Notes: generated from the letters alone by a model not told the origin. Positions 41,418 through 49,956 are shown, counted from the stretch's first letter. The stretch is 64,000 bases of DNA from Dehalococcoidia bacterium (GCA_040902195.1 JBBDXS010000019.1:213969-277968); one strand, 5' to 3'. Numbers and translations: made by a program.

Positions 41418-42125
41418 CTAGCAGAAGCCTTCCGGATCGAATCGGCAGTAGAGCATGTCGATGAACTCCTGCAGCCTGTCCAGATCGAGCTCGGTCGCGG
41501 GCATCAGGTCGCGTCGGCCCCAGACGGTGATCGCGACGGTCTCCATAGCCATGTTGGGGTAGGGGGCCAGCACCAGCGTAACGTCGTCGTTCAGGTTTTC
41601 CGTCGCAAACGTCTCCAGCTGGTCGATGACGTCTTCGTCCGCCGTGTTGTACCAGACGATCACCCCGGCGTGCTCCATATTGTGCACAAGCGTCTCGGCC
41701 GGCCAGGGCTCGCGGTAGATGCCCCACGGTGCCGGGCCGCACAAGGGCGGTGATGATGAGGGGTCCTGGCCGCACGCCGCGCTTCCCCAGTGCGGCCCGC
41801 CCGCCGGCGGCAGTCCCTGCGGCGAGTAGTCCATCGCGTAAGTAACGTGCGCTGAGGTGCCGGGACGTGTGCCGTACGCTCCGCCGTAGATTGCGGCCAG
41901 GTCGACGTATTCCCCGGGCAACGATGCGTCGTCATCCGCTTCCGCCGTCTGTTCGGGCGAGAGGCGGTCCACTGTCGTTGGCTGTGCGGTCGGCGTCGTT
42001 TCGGTGCTTTCGCCGCCACCACCTCCGAGTGCAGTCACGACCACAGTGGCGGCGAGCGCCACAGCCAGCACGACGATGGCGACGAGCATCGCCCCAATCA
42101 GGCGTCTAGTCGAAGACGATGACAC
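41418..42125 (-). CDS. DUF3105 domain membrane-anchored protein
   Basis: N-terminal signal-anchor; VHNMEHAGVIVWY core typical of DUF3105; Cys-rich C-terminus. Alternative start at 42089 would remove the 20-nt overlap with the ADH gene. Confidence 0.7.
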   Translation of the reverse strand: MSSSSTRRLIGAMLVAIVVLAVALAATVVVTALGGGGGESTETTPTAQPTTVDRLSPEQTAEADDDASLPGEYVDLAAIYGGAYGTRPGTSAHVTYAMDYSPQGLPPAGGPHWGSAACGQDPSSSPPLCGPAPWGIYREPWPAETLVHNMEHAGVIVWYNTADEDVIDQLETFATENLNDDVTLVLAPYPNMAMETVAITVWGRRDLMPATELDLDRLQEFIDMLYCRFDPEGFC

Positions 42126-43179
42126 TCCGTGCCACTTCGCCGTTCTTCATCGCTGCGAAGGCGTCGTTGATGCCTTCGAGCGGGTAAGTGCGCGACACGA
42201 GCTCGTCCAGCTTCAGCTTGCCGGCCATGTACAGGTCCAGGATGCGCGGCATGTCGTAGCGCGGCCTAGTCGAGCCGTAGACGCAGCCTCGCAACACCTT
42301 CTCAGCCAGGAACGCCGGGGCGCTGATCGCCGCCTCGGAGCCGACCGGCGCCATCCCCACCACGATAGCCTCGCCGCCGCGGCGGACCATGTTGAACGCC
42401 TGCGTGATCGCCGCCGGCAGGCCGATCACCTCGAACGCGTAGTCCGCGCCGGCGCCGCCCGTCAGTTCCTGCACCTTCGCGACCGGGTCTTCTTTCGACG
42501 CGTCGACGAAATGCGTCGCGCCGAACTCGCGCGCCATCTCGAGTTTGTTCGTGTTCACATCGATTGCGATGATCTTCTCCGCGCCCGCGAGCGCGCAGCC
42601 CTGGATCACGTTCAGCCCGACGCCGCCCGCGCCGATCACGGCGCAGCTTGCGCCCGGTTCCACCTTCGCGGTGTTGATCGCCGCGCCGACGCCTGTCATT
42701 ACGCTACAACCGACGAGCGCGGCCACGTTCATCGGCACGTCCTCGCGGATCTTCACGACGCCGCCCTGCGGCACGACCATGTACTCAGCAAACGACGACA
42801 TCGACAAGAACGGCGCGACGGCCCGGTCGCCGATCTTCAGCGTTGGGGTGCTCGCGCGTCCTTCGCCACAGAGGTTCGGCCGGCCCGTTGTGCAGTAGCG
42901 GCACACGCCGCAGAACGGCGTGAACAGCATCACGACGTGGTCGCCCGGCTTTACGTACGTCACGCCGTCGCCGACCTTCTCGACGATGCCCGAGGCCTCG
43001 TGCCCGAGGATCGCCGGCGTCGGGATGGGCCACGACCCCTCGATGAAGTGGAGGTCACTGTGACATACGCCGCTCGCGCTTGTCTTGACCAGGACAAGTC
43101 CCGGCCCCGGGTTCTTGTCGATGCCGACGTCCTCGATAACAAGCGGCTTCTTCGCTTCGCGTAGGACTGCTGCCTTCAT
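42106..43179 (-). CDS. zinc-dependent alcohol dehydrogenase (MDR family)
   Basis: 357 aa from the ATG at 43179 (MKAAVLREAKK). GVCHSDLH catalytic zinc, CGVCRYCTTGRPNLC structural zinc, GAGGVG Rossmann. Confidence 0.85.
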   Translation of the reverse strand: MKAAVLREAKKPLVIEDVGIDKNPGPGLVLVKTSASGVCHSDLHFIEGSWPIPTPAILGHEASGIVEKVGDGVTYVKPGDHVVMLFTPFCGVCRYCTTGRPNLCGEGRASTPTLKIGDRAVAPFLSMSSFAEYMVVPQGGVVKIREDVPMNVAALVGCSVMTGVGAAINTAKVEPGASCAVIGAGGVGLNVIQGCALAGAEKIIAIDVNTNKLEMAREFGATHFVDASKEDPVAKVQELTGGAGADYAFEVIGLPAAITQAFNMVRRGGEAIVVGMAPVGSEAAISAPAFLAEKVLRGCVYGSTRPRYDMPRILDLYMAGKLKLDELVSRTYPLEGINDAFAAMKNGEVARSVIVFD

Positions 43180-43325
43180 GGGGCTCCTTTCGTGTCGGTA
43201 CGATGGCGCCCGCTGCGGGGCGCGGACTGCATTGTACACATTGCGCCTGATCTATAGGGGCGCACGCCTGTGCGCCCCCGAGGTCAGTCGCCGCATGCCG
43301 CACCGTTCATGGTGCGGGGGTGTTA

Positions 43326-44537
43326 TCAATAGGCAGCACACGTGACCGACAGCACCGGCGGTAGCGTGCCGGGCAGGCGCTGCCAGCTTTCTCCGCGGTC
43401 GGCGCTGGCGTAGACCTCGCCGTTGCTCGTGCCGACGTAGACGCCCTCCGGATCGAGACCGTCCGTGTCGAGTCCTTCTCGATACACGCTCTGGTAGTCG
43501 TGCGGGCCCGGCAGGCCGTTCGTCAGCGGCTCCCACGTCTTCGCGCCGTCTTGCGTTCGGTACACCGTGAACTGGCCGAGGGATACGCGGAAGTTGTCCT
43601 GGCCGTAGTCCAGCGGGACCACGTAGACCGCGTCCGGCTGGCGGCGCGTGACGGCGATGGGGAAGCCGTGGAATGAGGGGAGGCCCTCCGTGACGTCCTG
43701 CCAGTTAGCGCCGCTGTCGTCGGAGCGGAAGACGCCCCAGTGCGCCTGACCCCAGATGCGCTCGGGGTTCTTCGTGTCCACCCGCATCTTGTGCATCTCG
43801 TTGAGCCCGGCCGGGTCCTTGTCCCACGGCCCGCGGTCGATTGACGGGTCCATGCCCTCGACCATGAACTGTTGGACCAGCTTCTTCGCCTCTGGATTCG
43901 TCGCGACCGCGTTGTGCGAGAAGAGATCCCAGCTTGCTCCGCCGTCCTTCGACTCGTACGAACCCCCTGCGCCGACGCATAGGAAGACGTGCTTCGCATC
44001 GCGCGGGTCGACCTGGACCGAATGGATGCAGGAGTCACCACCGCCCGTGCCCGACCAGTACTTGCGATAGGGGTGCCGGTTCATCGACTCTACCGGTGTC
44101 CACGACTGGCCCCAGTCCTCGCTGCGGAAGAGGCCGGCGGGCTGCGTTCCGGCGTACACGACACCCGGCTCGCTCTCGTGCCCCGGCGCGACGTTCCAGA
44201 TGTTGCCTATCGCGCCCGGCGGGGTGTTCTGCCACTCGCCGGGCGCGCCGGGCGGTGGCACGGAAGGGCTCTTCATGTCGGGCGGGAACTTGAGCCCCTC
44301 GCTGCGATAGTCCCACGTCTTGCCCAGGTCCGTGCTCTTTGCAACCGAGGGGCCCCACGCCCAGTGGTTTGCGGCCGCATAGAACCTCGGTGGATCGCTC
44401 CGCAGGTCGGCCGCCATGTGGAAGAACGACCAGCCGGGCAGGATCGGCTCGGAGACCTCCCACTTCTGTCGCTTCCCGTCCGAGGAATAGATAAACGCGC
44501 CCTTCTTTGTACCCACCAGCAATCGTGTTTCGCTCAT
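43326..44537 (-). CDS. BNR/Asp-box repeat beta-propeller protein (sialidase/glycosidase-like)
   Basis: Six S/T-x-D-x-G-x-x-W Asp-boxes (STDLGKTW, SEDWGQSW, SKDGGASW, SDDSGANW, TQDGAKTW, ADRGESW). Confidence 0.75.
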   Translation of the reverse strand: MSETRLLVGTKKGAFIYSSDGKRQKWEVSEPILPGWSFFHMAADLRSDPPRFYAAANHWAWGPSVAKSTDLGKTWDYRSEGLKFPPDMKSPSVPPPGAPGEWQNTPPGAIGNIWNVAPGHESEPGVVYAGTQPAGLFRSEDWGQSWTPVESMNRHPYRKYWSGTGGGDSCIHSVQVDPRDAKHVFLCVGAGGSYESKDGGASWDLFSHNAVATNPEAKKLVQQFMVEGMDPSIDRGPWDKDPAGLNEMHKMRVDTKNPERIWGQAHWGVFRSDDSGANWQDVTEGLPSFHGFPIAVTRRQPDAVYVVPLDYGQDNFRVSLGQFTVYRTQDGAKTWEPLTNGLPGPHDYQSVYREGLDTDGLDPEGVYVGTSNGEVYASADRGESWQRLPGTLPPVLSVTCAAY

Positions 44538-44589: not shown

Positions 44590-46023
44590 TTAGTCCAACC
44601 CTTCGACCGATCGCCAGTATCTTATCGCACGGCTCAGCGCCACTGCCGCGCGCTCGAACGAATGGAACGCCGGGATCCCGCGCTCGATGACCTTCGTACG
44701 CGCATGGAAGGTCACGTCTTCGACGTGGCCCGGGTGCAGGATCGTGAGGAACGGCTTGTCCGAGCGCTCTTTGTGCGCCGTTAGCAGGTCGAGCATGCGG
44801 TCCAGGCTCAATGGGTCAGCCTGCCACTGCCGCGCCATGAAGCCCGACGCGAGCTCCATCGCGATCGCGTCGACGTGCTTGTCCTCATTTAGGATCGTCA
44901 GCAGCCGCTCGAGCGCGCCCTGCTGCCCGCCGAAGCCGATCGTCCCGCCCATGTCGAGTGGATTGCGGTAGCTCCCGCCGATGATGTTGAAAAAGCTCGC
45001 GAGCGTCTCGTAGCTCGATTCCGTCAGCAGCGGCACGTCCAGTCCCGCGCGCACGAACGCGTCCGTGATCACGACGGACTGCCCGCCCGTCATCGCCATC
45101 AGCCCCATCCCGCGGCCCGTGCCGGGCTTGCAGTAGAGCAGCGCCTTCAGCACGTCGATCGTGTCGTCGACGGTGTCCGTAGCGATCGCGCCGCACTGCC
45201 GCACGACGGCGTCCCACACGTGCTGCGACGTCGCCAGCGCCGCCGTGTGCGATGCCGTCGCGCGCGCGCCCGCCTCCGTCACGCCGCCTTTCCAGACCAC
45301 GACGGGCTTCTCGTCCGCCGCGCGCTTGAGCGCCTCGAACAGCCGCCGGCCGTCCTTTGTCCCTTCGATATACATCGCGATGACCTTTGTGTCGCGGTCC
45401 GCAGCGAGGTAGTCGAGATAGTCCGGTGCATCCAGCACCTCGGCATTGCCCATACTGATCGCTGTGCTGATCCGCACGCCCTGCGCCGCGCCGACCTGGC
45501 TGAAGTTGATCGCGTGCGTGCCCGATTGCGAGATGAAACCGACCGGCCCGCCTTCGCCTGCCGGCTGCTCAGCAGACTGGCGCACGCCCAGGCCGGGGTT
45601 GTACACGCCCATGCAGTTCGGTCCGATCAGCGCGAGTCCGGCCTCGCGCGCGATGCGTCCGATCTCGTGTTGGAGGCGTACGCCCTCATCTTCGCCCGTC
45701 TCGGCGAACCCCGAAGTGAACAGCGCGACGCCGCCCACACCTTTCGCTGCGCAGTCCGCGATGATCCGCGGCGCGATCGTCCGCGGTACTGCGCACATCA
45801 CGTAATCGATATCGTCCGGAATGTCCGCCAGCGATGCGAAGTTGGGTACGCCCAACTCTTCGATGCCCGGGATCTCATTCGGGTCGACCTGGACGGAGTA
45901 CACCTTCCCCTGGAAGGTGCTCATGTTGCGTAGCCAGAGGTACGCGTTCGCCCGCTTGTCGCCTACGACGGCGACCGTGCGCGGACGCAACGCGCGGGCG
46001 AGGCCGTCTCGTGGCTCCGGCAC
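44590..46023 (-). CDS. acetyl-CoA synthetase (ADP-forming) alpha subunit (CoA-binding + CoA-ligase domains)
   Basis: 477 aa; LRPRTVAVVGD CoA-binding Rossmann, LIGPNCMG, ISQSG, active-site His context (ATASHTAA). GTG start. Confidence 0.8.
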   Translation of the reverse strand: MPEPRDGLARALRPRTVAVVGDKRANAYLWLRNMSTFQGKVYSVQVDPNEIPGIEELGVPNFASLADIPDDIDYVMCAVPRTIAPRIIADCAAKGVGGVALFTSGFAETGEDEGVRLQHEIGRIAREAGLALIGPNCMGVYNPGLGVRQSAEQPAGEGGPVGFISQSGTHAINFSQVGAAQGVRISTAISMGNAEVLDAPDYLDYLAADRDTKVIAMYIEGTKDGRRLFEALKRAADEKPVVVWKGGVTEAGARATASHTAALATSQHVWDAVVRQCGAIATDTVDDTIDVLKALLYCKPGTGRGMGLMAMTGGQSVVITDAFVRAGLDVPLLTESSYETLASFFNIIGGSYRNPLDMGGTIGFGGQQGALERLLTILNEDKHVDAIAMELASGFMARQWQADPLSLDRMLDLLTAHKERSDKPFLTILHPGHVEDVTFHARTKVIERGIPAFHSFERAAVALSRAIRYWRSVEGLD

Positions 46024-46034
46024 GATAGCGTCCG

Positions 46035-46133
46035 CTAGCGCGCCGGCGTCTTCGCCTGCGCTTTGCGCTTGTCTTTCGCCTTGCGTTCCTTCACGCGGCG
46101 TTTGTTCAGTGCGACTTTCCTCGATTTGTTCAT
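46035..46133 (-). CDS. candidate small basic protein (32 aa: [32 protein letters not shown])
   Basis: ATG overlaps the stop of the upstream beta-subunit gene (ATGA); AGGA Shine-Dalgarno 6 nt upstream; stop 11 nt before the alpha-subunit GTG; 78% GC3 like genuine genes; 14 of 32 residues Lys/Arg. Confidence 0.4.
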   Translation of the reverse strand: MNKSRKVALNKRRVKERKAKDKRKAQAKTPAR

Positions 46134-46867
46134 GGCACGTCCTTTAGTGTGATGCGCGCGTCGACAGCGATGGCGCCGTCTGGGTAGGCGAACACCGGGT
46201 TCAGGTCGAGCTCGTCGAGCTCGGGATGCGCTTGCGCGAAGCTCGAGAGCTTGAGCAAGATGTCTTGCAGCGCGTCGAGGTCCGCCGGCTCCTGTCCTCG
46301 ATACCCTTCCAGCAGCGGGAAGCCCTGGAGCTCGCGTATCATCTGCGATGCGTCTCGTTTCGTGATCGGCACGACGCGGAACGCGACGTCCTTCAGCACC
46401 TCGACAAGCACGCCGCCCAATCCGAACATCAACACCGGGCCAAACTGCGCGTCGGTCGTCATACCGGCAATTACCTCTACGCCTGGCTTGGCCATGCGTT
46501 GCACGGAGACGCCATCGATCGCTGCGTTCGGCTCGGCGCGCTTCGCCGCCGCGACGATATCGTCGTACGCGCTCGACACGCCGTCTGCCGATGTGAGCCC
46601 GAGCTTTACGCCGCCGGCGTCGCTTTTGTGCGTAATCTGCGGCGATACGATTTTGAGCGCGACCGGATAGCCCAGCTCGCCCGCGATCGAGACCGCCTCG
46701 TCCTTGGTCTTCGCGAGCCGCGTCTCGACCACAGGAATGCCCGCTTCTCTGAGGAGCTGCTTCGCCTCGACCTCATTGAGAAGCGTCCGTCCCTGCGCCC
46801 GGGCCTGCTCGATCACCGCAGCAGTCATACGATGACGTATCTTACGCAAGCCCGCGTAACGCGTCAA
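46130..46867 (-). CDS. acetyl-CoA synthetase (ADP-forming) beta subunit (ATP-grasp domain)
   Basis: ATP-grasp ([17 protein letters not shown] ... [22 protein letters not shown]). TTG 46867 preceded by AGAGGGAG; internal ATG at 46828 is an alternative start. Confidence 0.8.
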
Positions 46868-47149: not shown

Positions 47150-47908
47150 CTAGCGCGCAACGAACCCGCCATCGACCGGGATCACGGCGCCTGTGATGAA
47201 TGACGAGCGGTCGGACGCGAGGAAGAGCGCAAGCTGCGCTACCTCCTTCGGCGTGCCGAAGCGTCCCACAGGCTCCAGCGCCTCCATTTGCGCAACTGCT
47301 GCGGGATCGTCGTGCGTGAACCGGCCGACCATAGGCGTGTCGATCACGCCCGGACAGAGGCAGTTCACGCGGACGCCCTGCTCGGCGTACTCCAGCGCTG
47401 CGGTTCGGGTGAGTTGGACGACTCCACCCTTGGAGGCGCAGTACGCCGGGATGCCCGGGAAGCCAACGAGCCCGGCGACAGAGGCGTTGTTGATCACCGA
47501 GCCGCCGCCGCCGCGCAGCATCGCGTCGATGCCGAACTTCAGGCCAAGGAACACGCTCTTCAGGTTGCAATCGATGACGCGCTGCCAGTTGTCAACTGTC
47601 GCTTGCGCCGTCGGCGCCTGCTCACCCTCAATGCCGGCGTTGTTGAAGAGCACGTCCAACCGCCCGTACTGGCTCAGCGCCAGATGGATCATCGCTTCAA
47701 CATCGCCCTCGCGTGACACGTCGGCGTGGACGTAGGCGCAGGTCGAACCCGTTCGCGCCAACTCGTCCGCAAGCTGCTGCCCCGCCTCGTCCTGGACGTC
47801 CGCCGCGATGACGACCGCACCCTCCGAGGCAAAGAGTTCAACGCTCGCCCGGCCGATACCGGACGCCGCCCCCGTGACAATGGCGACTTTGTTCTCTAGC
47901 TCGCCCAT
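47150..47908 (-). CDS. short-chain dehydrogenase/reductase (SDR)
   Basis: TGAASGIGRA cofactor motif, NNAG, YCASKGG catalytic Tyr-x3-Lys. ATG at 47908 preceded by GGGAGA. Confidence 0.85.
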   Translation of the reverse strand: MGELENKVAIVTGAASGIGRASVELFASEGAVVIAADVQDEAGQQLADELARTGSTCAYVHADVSREGDVEAMIHLALSQYGRLDVLFNNAGIEGEQAPTAQATVDNWQRVIDCNLKSVFLGLKFGIDAMLRGGGGSVINNASVAGLVGFPGIPAYCASKGGVVQLTRTAALEYAEQGVRVNCLCPGVIDTPMVGRFTHDDPAAVAQMEALEPVGRFGTPKEVAQLALFLASDRSSFITGAVIPVDGGFVAR

Positions 47909-48028
47909 CACTGTCTCTCCCTTTTCTGCATCGCTGGCTGCGCGGATATTTCGCGGTTTCTATCTTCTCGTAATGCTCGTCCGTCTGGCACGGCCAAGAG
48001 GCCCCTAGCTGCGAGCCATTCGGCACAT

Positions 48029-49300
48029 ATGCAGCGTCGTCCTTCCGATGTGAACGGCAAAAAGTCCTATACTGCTTTAGTGACTCAGGAAGGGCAGTCG
48101 GAGCATCCGCCAGAAGACGGCAGGCCAGAGCGCAGAGCTCGCGAGCTCTTGAACCTGCGGGCGGAGAACGAACGCCTGCGAACGCGCCTCATTTTGCTGA
48201 GCCGGCTCGGCCAGCAGATCGCCTCGTCACTCGACCTGACAACTGTGTTTCAGCAGGTCGTCGACAGCGCTTGCGAGCTGACGAGTGCTCGCTACGGCGC
48301 GCTTGGCATCTTCGATCGGCACGGACAGATCGAACAGTTCATTACGCATGGCCTGACGGACGAAGAACAGGACCGCATCGGCAGGCTGCCGGAGGGGCTC
48401 GGGGTCCTGGGCTGGCTCCGAGATCTTCAGGAGCCGCTTCGCTTGGGCGACCTGACGAAGCACCCGCGTTCCGCCGGCTTTCCCTCGAACCACCCAGCAA
48501 TGAAGACGTTTCTGGGTGCGCCCATCCGGCATGGCGCAGTGTCTCTCGGCAACCTCTATCTGACCGAGAAGGCTGAAGAACAGGACTTCACGCCGGAAGA
48601 CGAGAACCTGCTCGTCCTGTTTGCGGCGCAGGCGGCAATGGCGATCCGTAACGCGCAACTACACCGCCAAGTGCAGGACCTAGCCATACTGGAGGAGCGC
48701 GACCGGATCGGCATGGACCTACATGACGGCGTGATCCAGTCGCTCTACGCGACAGGGCTGAAGCTCGAAAGCGTATTGGACGACATGGCGAAGAACCCGC
48801 AGGAGGTCGCGTCCGAAGTTGGGCGCGCAATCGATCAGCTCAACCAGGTCATTGGCGACATCAGGAGCTACATCTTTCACCTCCGCCCCACCGCTCTCTC
48901 AGAGACCGACCTTGCCGGGGCGGTGGGTGGGCTGCTGCGTGAGCTCAAGGTCAACACGTTGATAGACGTTGAAATGCTGGAGGCGCCTGGTGCTTGTCGT
49001 GGGCTGGACCAGGAGCTTGCCGGAGGGTTGTTCCTGGTCGCCAAGGAGGCAATCGCGAACGCTCAGAAGCACGCAAAAGCGAAGCGCGTGTCCGCTTCAC
49101 TCGAGCGGTACAACGGCACCCTCAAGATGATCATTGCGGACGACGGCTCAGGATTCGATCCAGCCCTACCGAGCAGCGGCCTAGGCCTGCATAATGTCCG
49201 CGAGCGCATCGAGCGGCTTGGCGGAACGTTGTCGTTGGAGTCCAGTCCCCGGGATGGGACGCGCATCGTCGTAGAGGTCCCAGTCGCGGCTGGAAACTGA
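48029..49300 (+). CDS. GAF-domain sensor histidine kinase (HisKA_3/NarL-partner type, DevS/DosT-like architecture)
   Basis: GAF (TSARYGALGIFDRHGQI...), H-box RDRIGMDLHDGVIQSL, HATPase (ADDGSGFD, GLGLHNVRERI). Confidence 0.85.
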   Translation: MQRRPSDVNGKKSYTALVTQEGQSEHPPEDGRPERRARELLNLRAENERLRTRLILLSRLGQQIASSLDLTTVFQQVVDSACELTSARYGALGIFDRHGQIEQFITHGLTDEEQDRIGRLPEGLGVLGWLRDLQEPLRLGDLTKHPRSAGFPSNHPAMKTFLGAPIRHGAVSLGNLYLTEKAEEQDFTPEDENLLVLFAAQAAMAIRNAQLHRQVQDLAILEERDRIGMDLHDGVIQSLYATGLKLESVLDDMAKNPQEVASEVGRAIDQLNQVIGDIRSYIFHLRPTALSETDLAGAVGGLLRELKVNTLIDVEMLEAPGACRGLDQELAGGLFLVAKEAIANAQKHAKAKRVSASLERYNGTLKMIIADDGSGFDPALPSSGLGLHNVRERIERLGGTLSLESSPRDGTRIVVEVPVAAGN

Positions 49301-49956
49301 TGGTTGAGCAGGCGCGTGTGCTTCTCGTAGACGACCATGACGTCGTTCGCGAAGGCCTGCGCGCGCTGCTGCGTAGGCGCGATGAGTTGGTCGTGGTCGG
49401 CGAGGCGGACTCCGTCGCCTCCGCCATCGAGGCCGCGCGCGCCAGCCAGCCGGACGTCGTCGTTATGGACGTCCGCCTCCCTGATGGTACCGGCGTTCAG
49501 GCGTGCCGGGCGATCAGGGCCGAGCGGCCGGATACGAAGGTCATCATGCTCACGTCATACGCAGACGATGAGGCCGTCTTGGCATCGATCATGGCCGGCG
49601 CGAGCGGCTATCTCCTCAAGCAGACGCGCGGTCAGGACCTGCTCGACGCCATCGGGCGGGTCCTGCGCGGCGAGTCTCTCCTCGACCCCGTCGTGACGAG
49701 CCGGGTGCTCGAACGCGTGCGCAGTGCCGGACAAGGGAAACCTGACGAGCTCTCGCTCCTGTCGGAGCAAGAGCGCAAGATCCTCGACCTGATCGCAGAG
49801 GGCAAGACGAATAAGGAGATAGCGGAAGATGTCTTCCTCAGCGACAAGACGGTCAAGAACTACGTTAGTAGCATCCTGAGCAAGCTCGACCTGCGGCGTC
49901 GCTCCGAAGCCGCCGCGTTCATAGCCCGGCGTCAGACGCCTCCCCCGCAAGACTAG
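49300..49956 (+). CDS. NarL/LuxR-family response regulator (DevR/DosR-like)
   Basis: REC domain (LLVDDHDVVREG, VVMDVRLPDG, KVIMLTSY) plus C-terminal LuxR HTH (LSEQERKILDLIAEGKTNKEIA). TGATG overlap with the kinase gene. Confidence 0.9.
   Translation: MVEQARVLLVDDHDVVREGLRALLRRRDELVVVGEADSVASAIEAARASQPDVVVMDVRLPDGTGVQACRAIRAERPDTKVIMLTSYADDEAVLASIMAGASGYLLKQTRGQDLLDAIGRVLRGESLLDPVVTSRVLERVRSAGQGKPDELSLLSEQERKILDLIAEGKTNKEIAEDVFLSDKTVKNYVSSILSKLDLRRRSEAAAFIARRQTPPPQD

Follow-up and report, generated by a model that had tools for sequence, protein, structure and literature searches.

A 32-codon gene between the beta and alpha genes of a Chloroflexota acyl-CoA synthetase operon and its membership of an unnamed family of tiny basic proteins

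Among described proteins, those closest in kind to the one considered here are the bS22 ribosomal proteins, which are 30-33 aa long, helical and composed of up to 61% K/R (PMC10618245 with Supplementary Note 1; PMC12123416; bioRxiv 10.1101/2023.03.31.535098). They occupy the h27/h44/h45 pocket and are non-essential in M. smegmatis; bS22 is unannotated in Borrelia and labelled 'hypothetical' in Porphyromonas, and tblastn with the mycobacterial protein failed in Borrelia (PMC10618245; PMC12123416; bioRxiv 10.1101/2023.03.31.535098). Identity between bS22 proteins of different phyla is only 19%, so sequence searches from one phylum to another fail, and proteins of fewer than 50 residues are systematically missed or left 'hypothetical'. 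Other tiny ribosomal proteins, such as bL37, bTHX and bL38, were discovered only via ribosomes and not through annotation. The second system of relevance is that of the NDP-forming acyl-CoA synthetases, whose operons have beta and alpha genes in the standard beta-to-alpha order, as in the fused archaeal enzymes, and for which no third gene or small subunit is known.

The window (the whole stretch of DNA analysed here, 64,000 nucleotides) contains an operon of this second kind in which a small ORF, called x below, lies between the two subunit genes. The features of the region, given in the order of transcription, are:

46130..46867, minus strand: ACD beta gene (ATP-grasp_5; Pfam PF13549, E = 8e-91)
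46140..46144, minus strand: Shine-Dalgarno-like AAGGA within the 3′ end of beta, read from the sequence
46130..46133, minus strand: ATGA overlap of the x start and the beta stop (ATG 46133-46131, TGA 46132-46130)
46035..46133, minus strand: x, a 32-codon gene and divergent member of a Chloroflexota family (family profile, dN/dS, predicted helix)
46024..46034, minus strand: 11-nt spacer from the x stop to the alpha GTG, without a good Shine-Dalgarno
44590..46023, minus strand: ACD alpha gene (CoA_binding_2 + Succ_CoA_lig; Pfam, NCBIfam), with its GTG start at 46023

By their domains the flanking genes can be assigned securely to the beta and alpha subunits of an ACD-type NDP-forming acyl-CoA synthetase. 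Alpha matches PF13607 (E = 1e-45) and PF13380 (E = 6e-14) in Pfam and scores 301 bits against TIGR02717 (acetate--CoA ligase alpha), under that model's 567-bit equivalog cut-off; the substrate may thus be acetate or a different acid. The longest ORF for beta starts at TTG 46867, and an identical public contig (L081) calls the ATG at 46828 (232 aa). We also note a promoter-like TTGACG-17-TAAGAT at window positions 46839-46867 (minus strand) that ends about 11 nt upstream of this ATG; its nearness suggests that the operon mRNA has a very short leader or none. An SDR gene lies immediately upstream of beta (47150-47911, minus strand), and a divergent GAF-histidine kinase and LuxR-type response regulator pair occupies 48029-49956 (plus strand). 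Downstream of alpha are a BNR/sortilin-like repeat protein gene and a zinc alcohol dehydrogenase gene (42106-44537, minus strand); in L178 an alcohol dehydrogenase gene and a DUF3105 gene likewise follow alpha.

An earlier note on this DNA, made from the sequence alone, had described a highly basic 32-codon ORF between the two genes, with an ATG that overlaps the beta stop as ATGA, an AGGA Shine-Dalgarno, a genome-typical GC3 of 78% and a stop 11 nt from the alpha GTG. This description holds throughout, and to it can be added the orientation, which the note left unstated: x runs on the minus strand from 46133 to 46035, its TAG stop included. The AGGA ends 6 nt upstream of the ATG, GC3 is 0.781 for x (0.79 for beta and 0.86 for alpha), and the peptide (3.8 kDa) has K+R at 15 of 32 positions (47%), a pI of 12.0 and a net charge of about +13. 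Beta, x and alpha use three different reading frames. At 66% GC the window holds 601 ORFs of at least 32 codons over its six frames (9.4 per kb), and the length of x is therefore by itself unremarkable, no more than chance; what lifts it above chance is its start context and its conservation in relatives, not the open frame.

The identical 32-aa peptide has been called as a gene in the public assembly that matches the window over beta-x-alpha (L081), and six more variants, 88-97% identical to it, occur on at least 10 further short public contigs (from four sources, including Logan, JGI and ENA), all of them in the arrangement beta-x-alpha. The nearest genomes by flanking genes are Dehalococcoidia/Chloroflexota MAGs. 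When one genome per species was scanned with the beta protein and the spacers were read in three frames, 27 Chloroflexota loci with beta followed by alpha were obtained, which puts the window in a Dehalococcoidia-type member of that phylum; the closest genome, L001 (alpha 82% identical), carries MNKRKRVAIKKHSQKLKKLKDKRKAPPPATGGRAGAHR at the same place, and in the remaining loci beta and alpha are either fused in frame or separated by 1-140 nt of unrelated sequence. When metagenomes were scanned with alpha, clear x homologues of 32-50 aa appeared in L091, L092, L093, L094 and L167, along with a decayed x in L097, and L095, L096 and L123 had none. Loci further removed (alpha 77-89% identical) still preserve the reading frame and the first 25 residues but differ in tail and in length (32-50 aa). 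These homologues came from spacer reading and a motif scan; tblastn with the peptide against the first 80 loci gave no match at E <= 1e-3. For protein searches the 32-aa query was extended upstream in frame and later replaced by profiles.

For 13 ACD-linked copies, compared over their first 25 codons, the median dN/dS in the x frame is 0.32-0.36, with close pairs at 0.13-0.26, and each of the other frames either contains stops or has a higher dN/dS; K/R exchanges make up many of the replacements. The earlier note had allowed that the frame might be lost in relatives and had proposed Ka/Ks and synteny as checks. The frame is instead kept at the orthologous site, dN/dS in it spans 0.13-0.36 and is worse in the others, and the order beta-x-alpha is kept in every x-bearing ACD locus. 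Its expectation that gene callers would skip x also agrees with what we find, since default annotation tends to miss it or to call it 'hypothetical'. On these patterns of conservation, we regard x as almost certainly a real, translated and conserved gene.

Homologues of x extend well beyond this operon. A first profile, built from eight copies, retrieved 62 clusters at 90% identity with lengths of 29-54 residues; a second, built from those 62 and searched against 1.84 billion proteins with a limit of E <= 1e-3, gave 157 representatives of clusters at 50% identity, and a wider profile gave 269 clusters at 90% identity. Family members are about 29-60 aa long and have a core, MNKRKRVAxxKHRxKxKK(L)(E/x)(E/x)KRK, at the very N-terminus, followed by an unconstrained tail. 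Among 149 diverse members K11 is invariant, and M1, N2, K3, K5, V7, A8 and K18 are at least 90% conserved. The x of the window matches the family profile of its relatives at E = 3.3e-9, and in a six-frame translation of the window it is the sole family match (E = 3e-10), there being no second copy in the 64 kb. It agrees with the family in length (32 aa) and in having the motif at its very N-terminus, and it retains M1, N2, K3, V7, A8, K11 and K18. Among family members it is divergent, the usual Arg, Trp and His being replaced by Ser4, Leu9 and Arg12; it also evolves faster than alpha, and this rate, together with the changes at positions 9 and 12, could reflect relaxed constraint.

Labelled members are all 'hypothetical protein' and come from Chloroflexi, Chloroflexota, Ktedonobacteraceae, Ktedonobacterales and Dehalococcoidia; most members are unlabelled, so a restriction to Chloroflexota is not proven. 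Scans of 11 members against Pfam and NCBIfam at E <= 10 matched no family entry, PF08213 (bS22) included, and profile and single-sequence searches of the PDB returned 0 matches at E <= 10. A full-text literature search for the family motif strings found no paper, and tblastn of a family member against the PLSDB plasmids gave no match, a search with which the low-complexity filter may have interfered. AlphaFold2, given the 62-sequence alignment, predicts one helix over residues 3-28 (pLDDT 88.9), and Foldseek with this model found no match in the PDB, as expected for a lone helix. The family to which x belongs is large and unnamed, made up of tiny, very basic proteins of predicted helical form, and so far seen in Chloroflexota only.

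The earlier note had called the peptide 'bS22-like'. As to length and charge this was correct; size, K/R content and helicity of x are all like those of bS22, but these properties are not family-specific. Homology to bS22 or to another ribosomal family is the part that did not hold, and for bS22, eL41 and mS38 it found no support in five tests. PF08213 and the eL41 family (PF05162) were without a Pfam match, and the PDB searches were empty although the library includes bS22 chains. An hhalign comparison with M. tuberculosis bS22 gave a probability of 2.8%, with KRKrVAxrKHRiKxKK aligned to RRKRMSKKKHRKLLRR; the bS22 query sequence was confirmed through its PDB matches. When the family HMM was run against 5,000 composition-matched shuffles of each protein, p was 0.53, 0.14, 0.03 and 0.34 for bS22 of Msm, Mtb, Bbu and Fjo, respectively, 0.43 for eL41 (human sequence) and 0.41 for mS38. 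By this measure the real proteins fare no better than their shuffles, and the statement that x 'is a bS22' is not supported.

Two subfamilies, P0026 and P0030, are ACD-linked with the same 4-nt overlap; the other subfamilies examined occur in quite different surroundings. P0047 follows a divergent SHMT gene and precedes a weak receiver-like gene of 113 aa, and P0062 lies upstream of a 141-aa counterpart of that receiver-like gene (copies with SHMT, receiver-like and SDR genes nearby are those of L171, L172 and L177). The SDR neighbors of P0047 and P0062 (L172 and L177) are orthologous and 67% identical, and x is 69% identical there, from which it appears that x evolves like an ordinary constrained protein. 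The SDR gene of the window was considered as a shared ancestral neighbor of x with these two and rejected, being only 30% identical and not orthologous. P0046 lies between ParB and C39-type peptidase genes (L173-176) and overlaps the peptidase gene by 4 nt, and P0059 (L184) lies between rhodanese and PaREP1 genes. None of the neighborhoods read for the family is a ribosomal-protein operon. Since the stand-alone copies sit in unrelated neighborhoods, the family protein is not ACD-specific; the tie to ACD that the earlier note implied is true of one clade, but not of the subfamilies in SHMT, ParB/C39 and rhodanese/PaREP1 contexts.

Stand-alone copies mostly possess a good Shine-Dalgarno of their own. 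At L171:3985-4012 and L172:12-39 there is none, and a TAGAAT ends about 9 nt upstream of the ATG, so that the mRNA there may be leaderless. The gene call starts 3 codons further upstream, at MLLMNK. At L173:2931-3949 (also in L174-L176), the small gene, which lies downstream of the divergent ParB gene, shares 4 nt with the beginning of a gene for a 291-aa Peptidase_C39_2-like protein, a second case of coupling to a neighbor gene.

A neighbor-joining tree built on alpha subunits places all x-bearing loci within a single clade, whose alpha is at least 77% identical to that of the window; the sister pair L006 and L098 and all deeper branches are without x. Inside the clade x is missing from L002 and L095 together and from L096, and it is decayed in L097; L123 is also without x, its partial alpha (83% identical) being too short to be placed. 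Its loss from close relatives (L002, L095, L096, L123) means that x is dispensable there or that a second copy lies elsewhere. On this tree the insertion of x between beta and alpha is confined to one Dehalococcoidia-type Chloroflexota clade, and the simplest history would be that a stand-alone gene was captured once at the beta-alpha junction and then descended vertically, with a few losses. The decayed copy (L097:2364-2470) begins MNKADSVAWRKH, continues into an unrelated proline-rich sequence, MNKADSVAWRKHPTDTPSPPAPLPPRGRGVAVRPR, and retains the ATGA overlap with the beta stop.

The junction has been altered in other ways as well. Beta and alpha form one in-frame fused ORF at L007:4001-6151 and L017:4001-6139. 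At L002:4679-4772 the beta stop is in frame with alpha and an arginine-rich stretch of 30 codons lies between them, which would fit a recently split fusion or read-through of the stop. The 513-nt spacer at L099:1988-2500 holds a pyridoxamine 5′-phosphate oxidase-like ORF (PF01243, E = 4e-13), an independent insertion at the same junction. In a sister ACD clade the spacers consist of tandem heptamers, (ACAGCAA)n or (ACAGCCA)n:

L005:1544-1615, L008:4689-4762, L100:2403-2474 and L106:2385-2455: heptamer-repeat spacers

These repeats make inverted repeats of 22-33 nt (long hairpins) in L005, L008 and L106, and L100 has direct repeats only; they could represent either a repeat element or a signal that acts between the genes through its structure. 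Judged from this range of fusions, insertions and repeat hairpins, the beta-alpha junction is an evolutionary hot spot. We also note that the closest beta relatives outside Chloroflexota (about 48-51% identity) are those of Asgard archaea (Promethearchaeota, Hodarchaeota, Odinarchaeota), and that the Asgard loci (L028-L061, L067, L068, L079) have no alpha homologue within 4 kb of beta.

An ATGA overlap combined with a short distance from stop to next start is the classical layout of termination-reinitiation. The (A/G)TGA overlap of the x start with the beta stop is present in all 13 ACD-linked homologues, in all 13 of which the x stop lies 5-31 nt ahead of the alpha start, and a GGAG/AAGGA-type motif is found at a similar distance in five of nine divergent x-bearing relatives as well as in the window lineage. 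From this anatomy, ribosomes that end beta would restart on x at the ATGA overlap, aided by the AAGGA, and those that end x would stop 11 nt short of the alpha GTG and restart there, so that x would relay translation from beta to alpha. Because the spacer has no good Shine-Dalgarno, initiation of alpha is probably reliant on ribosomes that terminate at x. Masking of the alpha start by a hairpin was considered and rejected: in the window a hairpin that contains both the x stop and the alpha GTG has a folding z of -2.1, seen in the window only, and across the 13 loci it is neither stable nor conserved (z from -2.3 to +1.5, mostly about 0). Rfam gave no match at the locus at E <= 1. The leader peptide that the earlier note had offered as one possibility finds no backing in these results, given no Rfam match, no conserved RNA structure and the same protein standing alone elsewhere, and a leader peptide or attenuator is rejected also because the protein sequence of x is itself conserved.

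The reading that we put forward, tentatively and at somewhat less than even odds, is that x is a translationally coupled passenger gene whose small product binds RNA and may sit on the ribosome. The parts of this reading differ in strength. That x is a passenger of the operon rather than a component of ACD is very likely from the comparison of contexts. That its product binds RNA or the ribosome is a possibility suggested by analogy and the guess at its function with most in its favor, and the least certain step is the protein's own job, which would be independent of ACD. Position-specific conservation in a tiny K/R-rich helix would point to a defined, structured RNA as its target, the likeliest being the ribosome, in the manner of bS22, eL41 and bL37, to which homology is undetectable. 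Exact residues conserved across the phylum, a +13 helix and occurrence in many contexts together make a profile most like that of the lineage-specific mini ribosomal proteins. A more specific version, that the family is a phylum-specific ribosomal protein seated in the bS22/eL41 or another rRNA pocket, with the only copy locked to ACD in one Dehalococcoidia lineage, is rather unlikely; were it true, production of a ribosome component would be coupled to how strongly an ATP-yielding, acetate-forming enzyme is expressed.

Of the rival explanations the one that survives best, though we consider it unlikely, is that x is a general, non-ribosomal nucleic-acid binder, for example a nucleoid-associated or RNA-chaperone-like basic helix. 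A net charge of about +13, a predicted single helix and phylum-wide occurrence would all suit such a protein, as would the want of a ribosomal gene neighborhood and its seeming dispensability in some relatives. Non-specific polyanion binders, however, usually keep their composition and not exact positions, and here at least 90% of the 149 diverse sequences, and all of them at K11, agree at M1, N2, K3, K5, V7, A8, K11 and K18.

It is improbable that x serves mainly as a translational relay over the 110-nt gap, keeping alpha in step with beta, with the peptide itself of minor importance. Conservation of the beta-stop overlap and of the short distance to alpha in 13 of 13 copies, the drift of the C-terminal tail and length, and an alpha GTG whose preceding spacer has no good Shine-Dalgarno are what such a role would lead one to expect. 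A mere relay does not explain why the N-terminal 25 residues are conserved as protein (dN/dS about 0.3, mostly K/R exchanges) or why the same sequence is conserved in stand-alone genes; moreover, relatives without x have spacers of 0-20 nt and so need no relay, and no stable, conserved hairpin covers the alpha start (z about 0).

More improbable still is that x in this clade serves ACD as a small subunit or regulator, being either the general protein co-opted or a specialized paralogue that binds the enzyme; such a partner might shield a nucleotide site or an acidic surface, or adjust the ratio of beta to alpha. The strict retention of x with its 4-nt overlap even where alpha is only 77% identical is also what a true ACD partner would show over so long a time, the ACD-linked copies are recognizable subfamilies, and their evolution faster than alpha, with consensus residues lost in the window lineage, is as would be seen under a new function. 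Yet the same conserved core occurs in four unrelated contexts without ACD, close relatives do without x (L096, with a 0-nt gap, and L002, L095 and L123), in-frame beta-alpha fusions exist (L007, L017), and NDP-forming acyl-CoA synthetases are not known to have a small subunit. Finally, that x is a chance ORF, a high-GC shadow or the linker remnant of a once-fused beta-alpha gene is scarcely credible, for although ORFs of its length are as dense in the window as given above and fused genes with 15-25-residue linkers occur in relatives and in NCBIfam models, the frame, start overlap and protein sequence are kept over long divergence, hundreds of homologues lie in other contexts, the x frame differs from those of beta and alpha and the fusion linkers are unlike x, so that the conservation data refute this reading.

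Returning to x as a coupled passenger gene, the locus would illustrate how a stand-alone small gene can be captured by a metabolic operon and then be expressed purely by predicted translational coupling. Behind this single gene stands a family that numbers hundreds of sequence clusters, has a sharp core and lacks an entry in Pfam, NCBIfam or the PDB. If family members are ribosome-bound, they would give a major but poorly cultured phylum a new ribosomal protein specific to its lineage and would be a further escape from annotation after those in Mycobacterium, Flavobacterium, Borrelia and Porphyromonas; if they are not, they would still be a testable and abundant candidate RNA- or DNA-binding mini-protein.

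Comparison with the known systems shows likenesses and differences in each case. As an NDP-forming acyl-CoA synthetase operon the locus has the usual beta and alpha genes in the usual order, and it differs in having the third gene, x, which is inserted there in one Chloroflexota clade only. With other coupled small ORFs that have ATGA overlaps it shares the 4-nt overlap, a Shine-Dalgarno within the upstream gene and the short distance from stop to start; unlike a relay that is indifferent to its sequence, x is itself conserved and also forms a stand-alone protein family. bL37 (Actinobacteria), bTHX (Thermus) and bL38 (Bacteroidota, Borrelia) are likewise tiny, very basic and found in one phylum each; no sequence relation of theirs to x was found, the PDB profile search having given no match at E <= 10.

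The fullest comparison is with bS22 (PF08213/DUF1713; its relatives are mS38/AURKAIP1/Cox24, and eL41 is a structural analogue). The x family differs from it in that sequence similarity between the two is without statistical support, in having an acidic EE/DE patch past the core and not having the five N-terminal residues of bS22, in the absence of a bend from the AlphaFold2 model and, for the x of the window, in its seat within a metabolic operon. The two are alike in size, in having about half or more K/R and a pI of about 12, in being essentially one helix, in a stand-alone gene outside ribosomal-protein operons that is often unannotated, in the loose local pattern KRKR-[VM]-[AS]-x-x-K-H-R seen with hhalign, and in forming lineage-specific sequence types that are unrecognizable across phyla (PMC10618245, PMC12123416).
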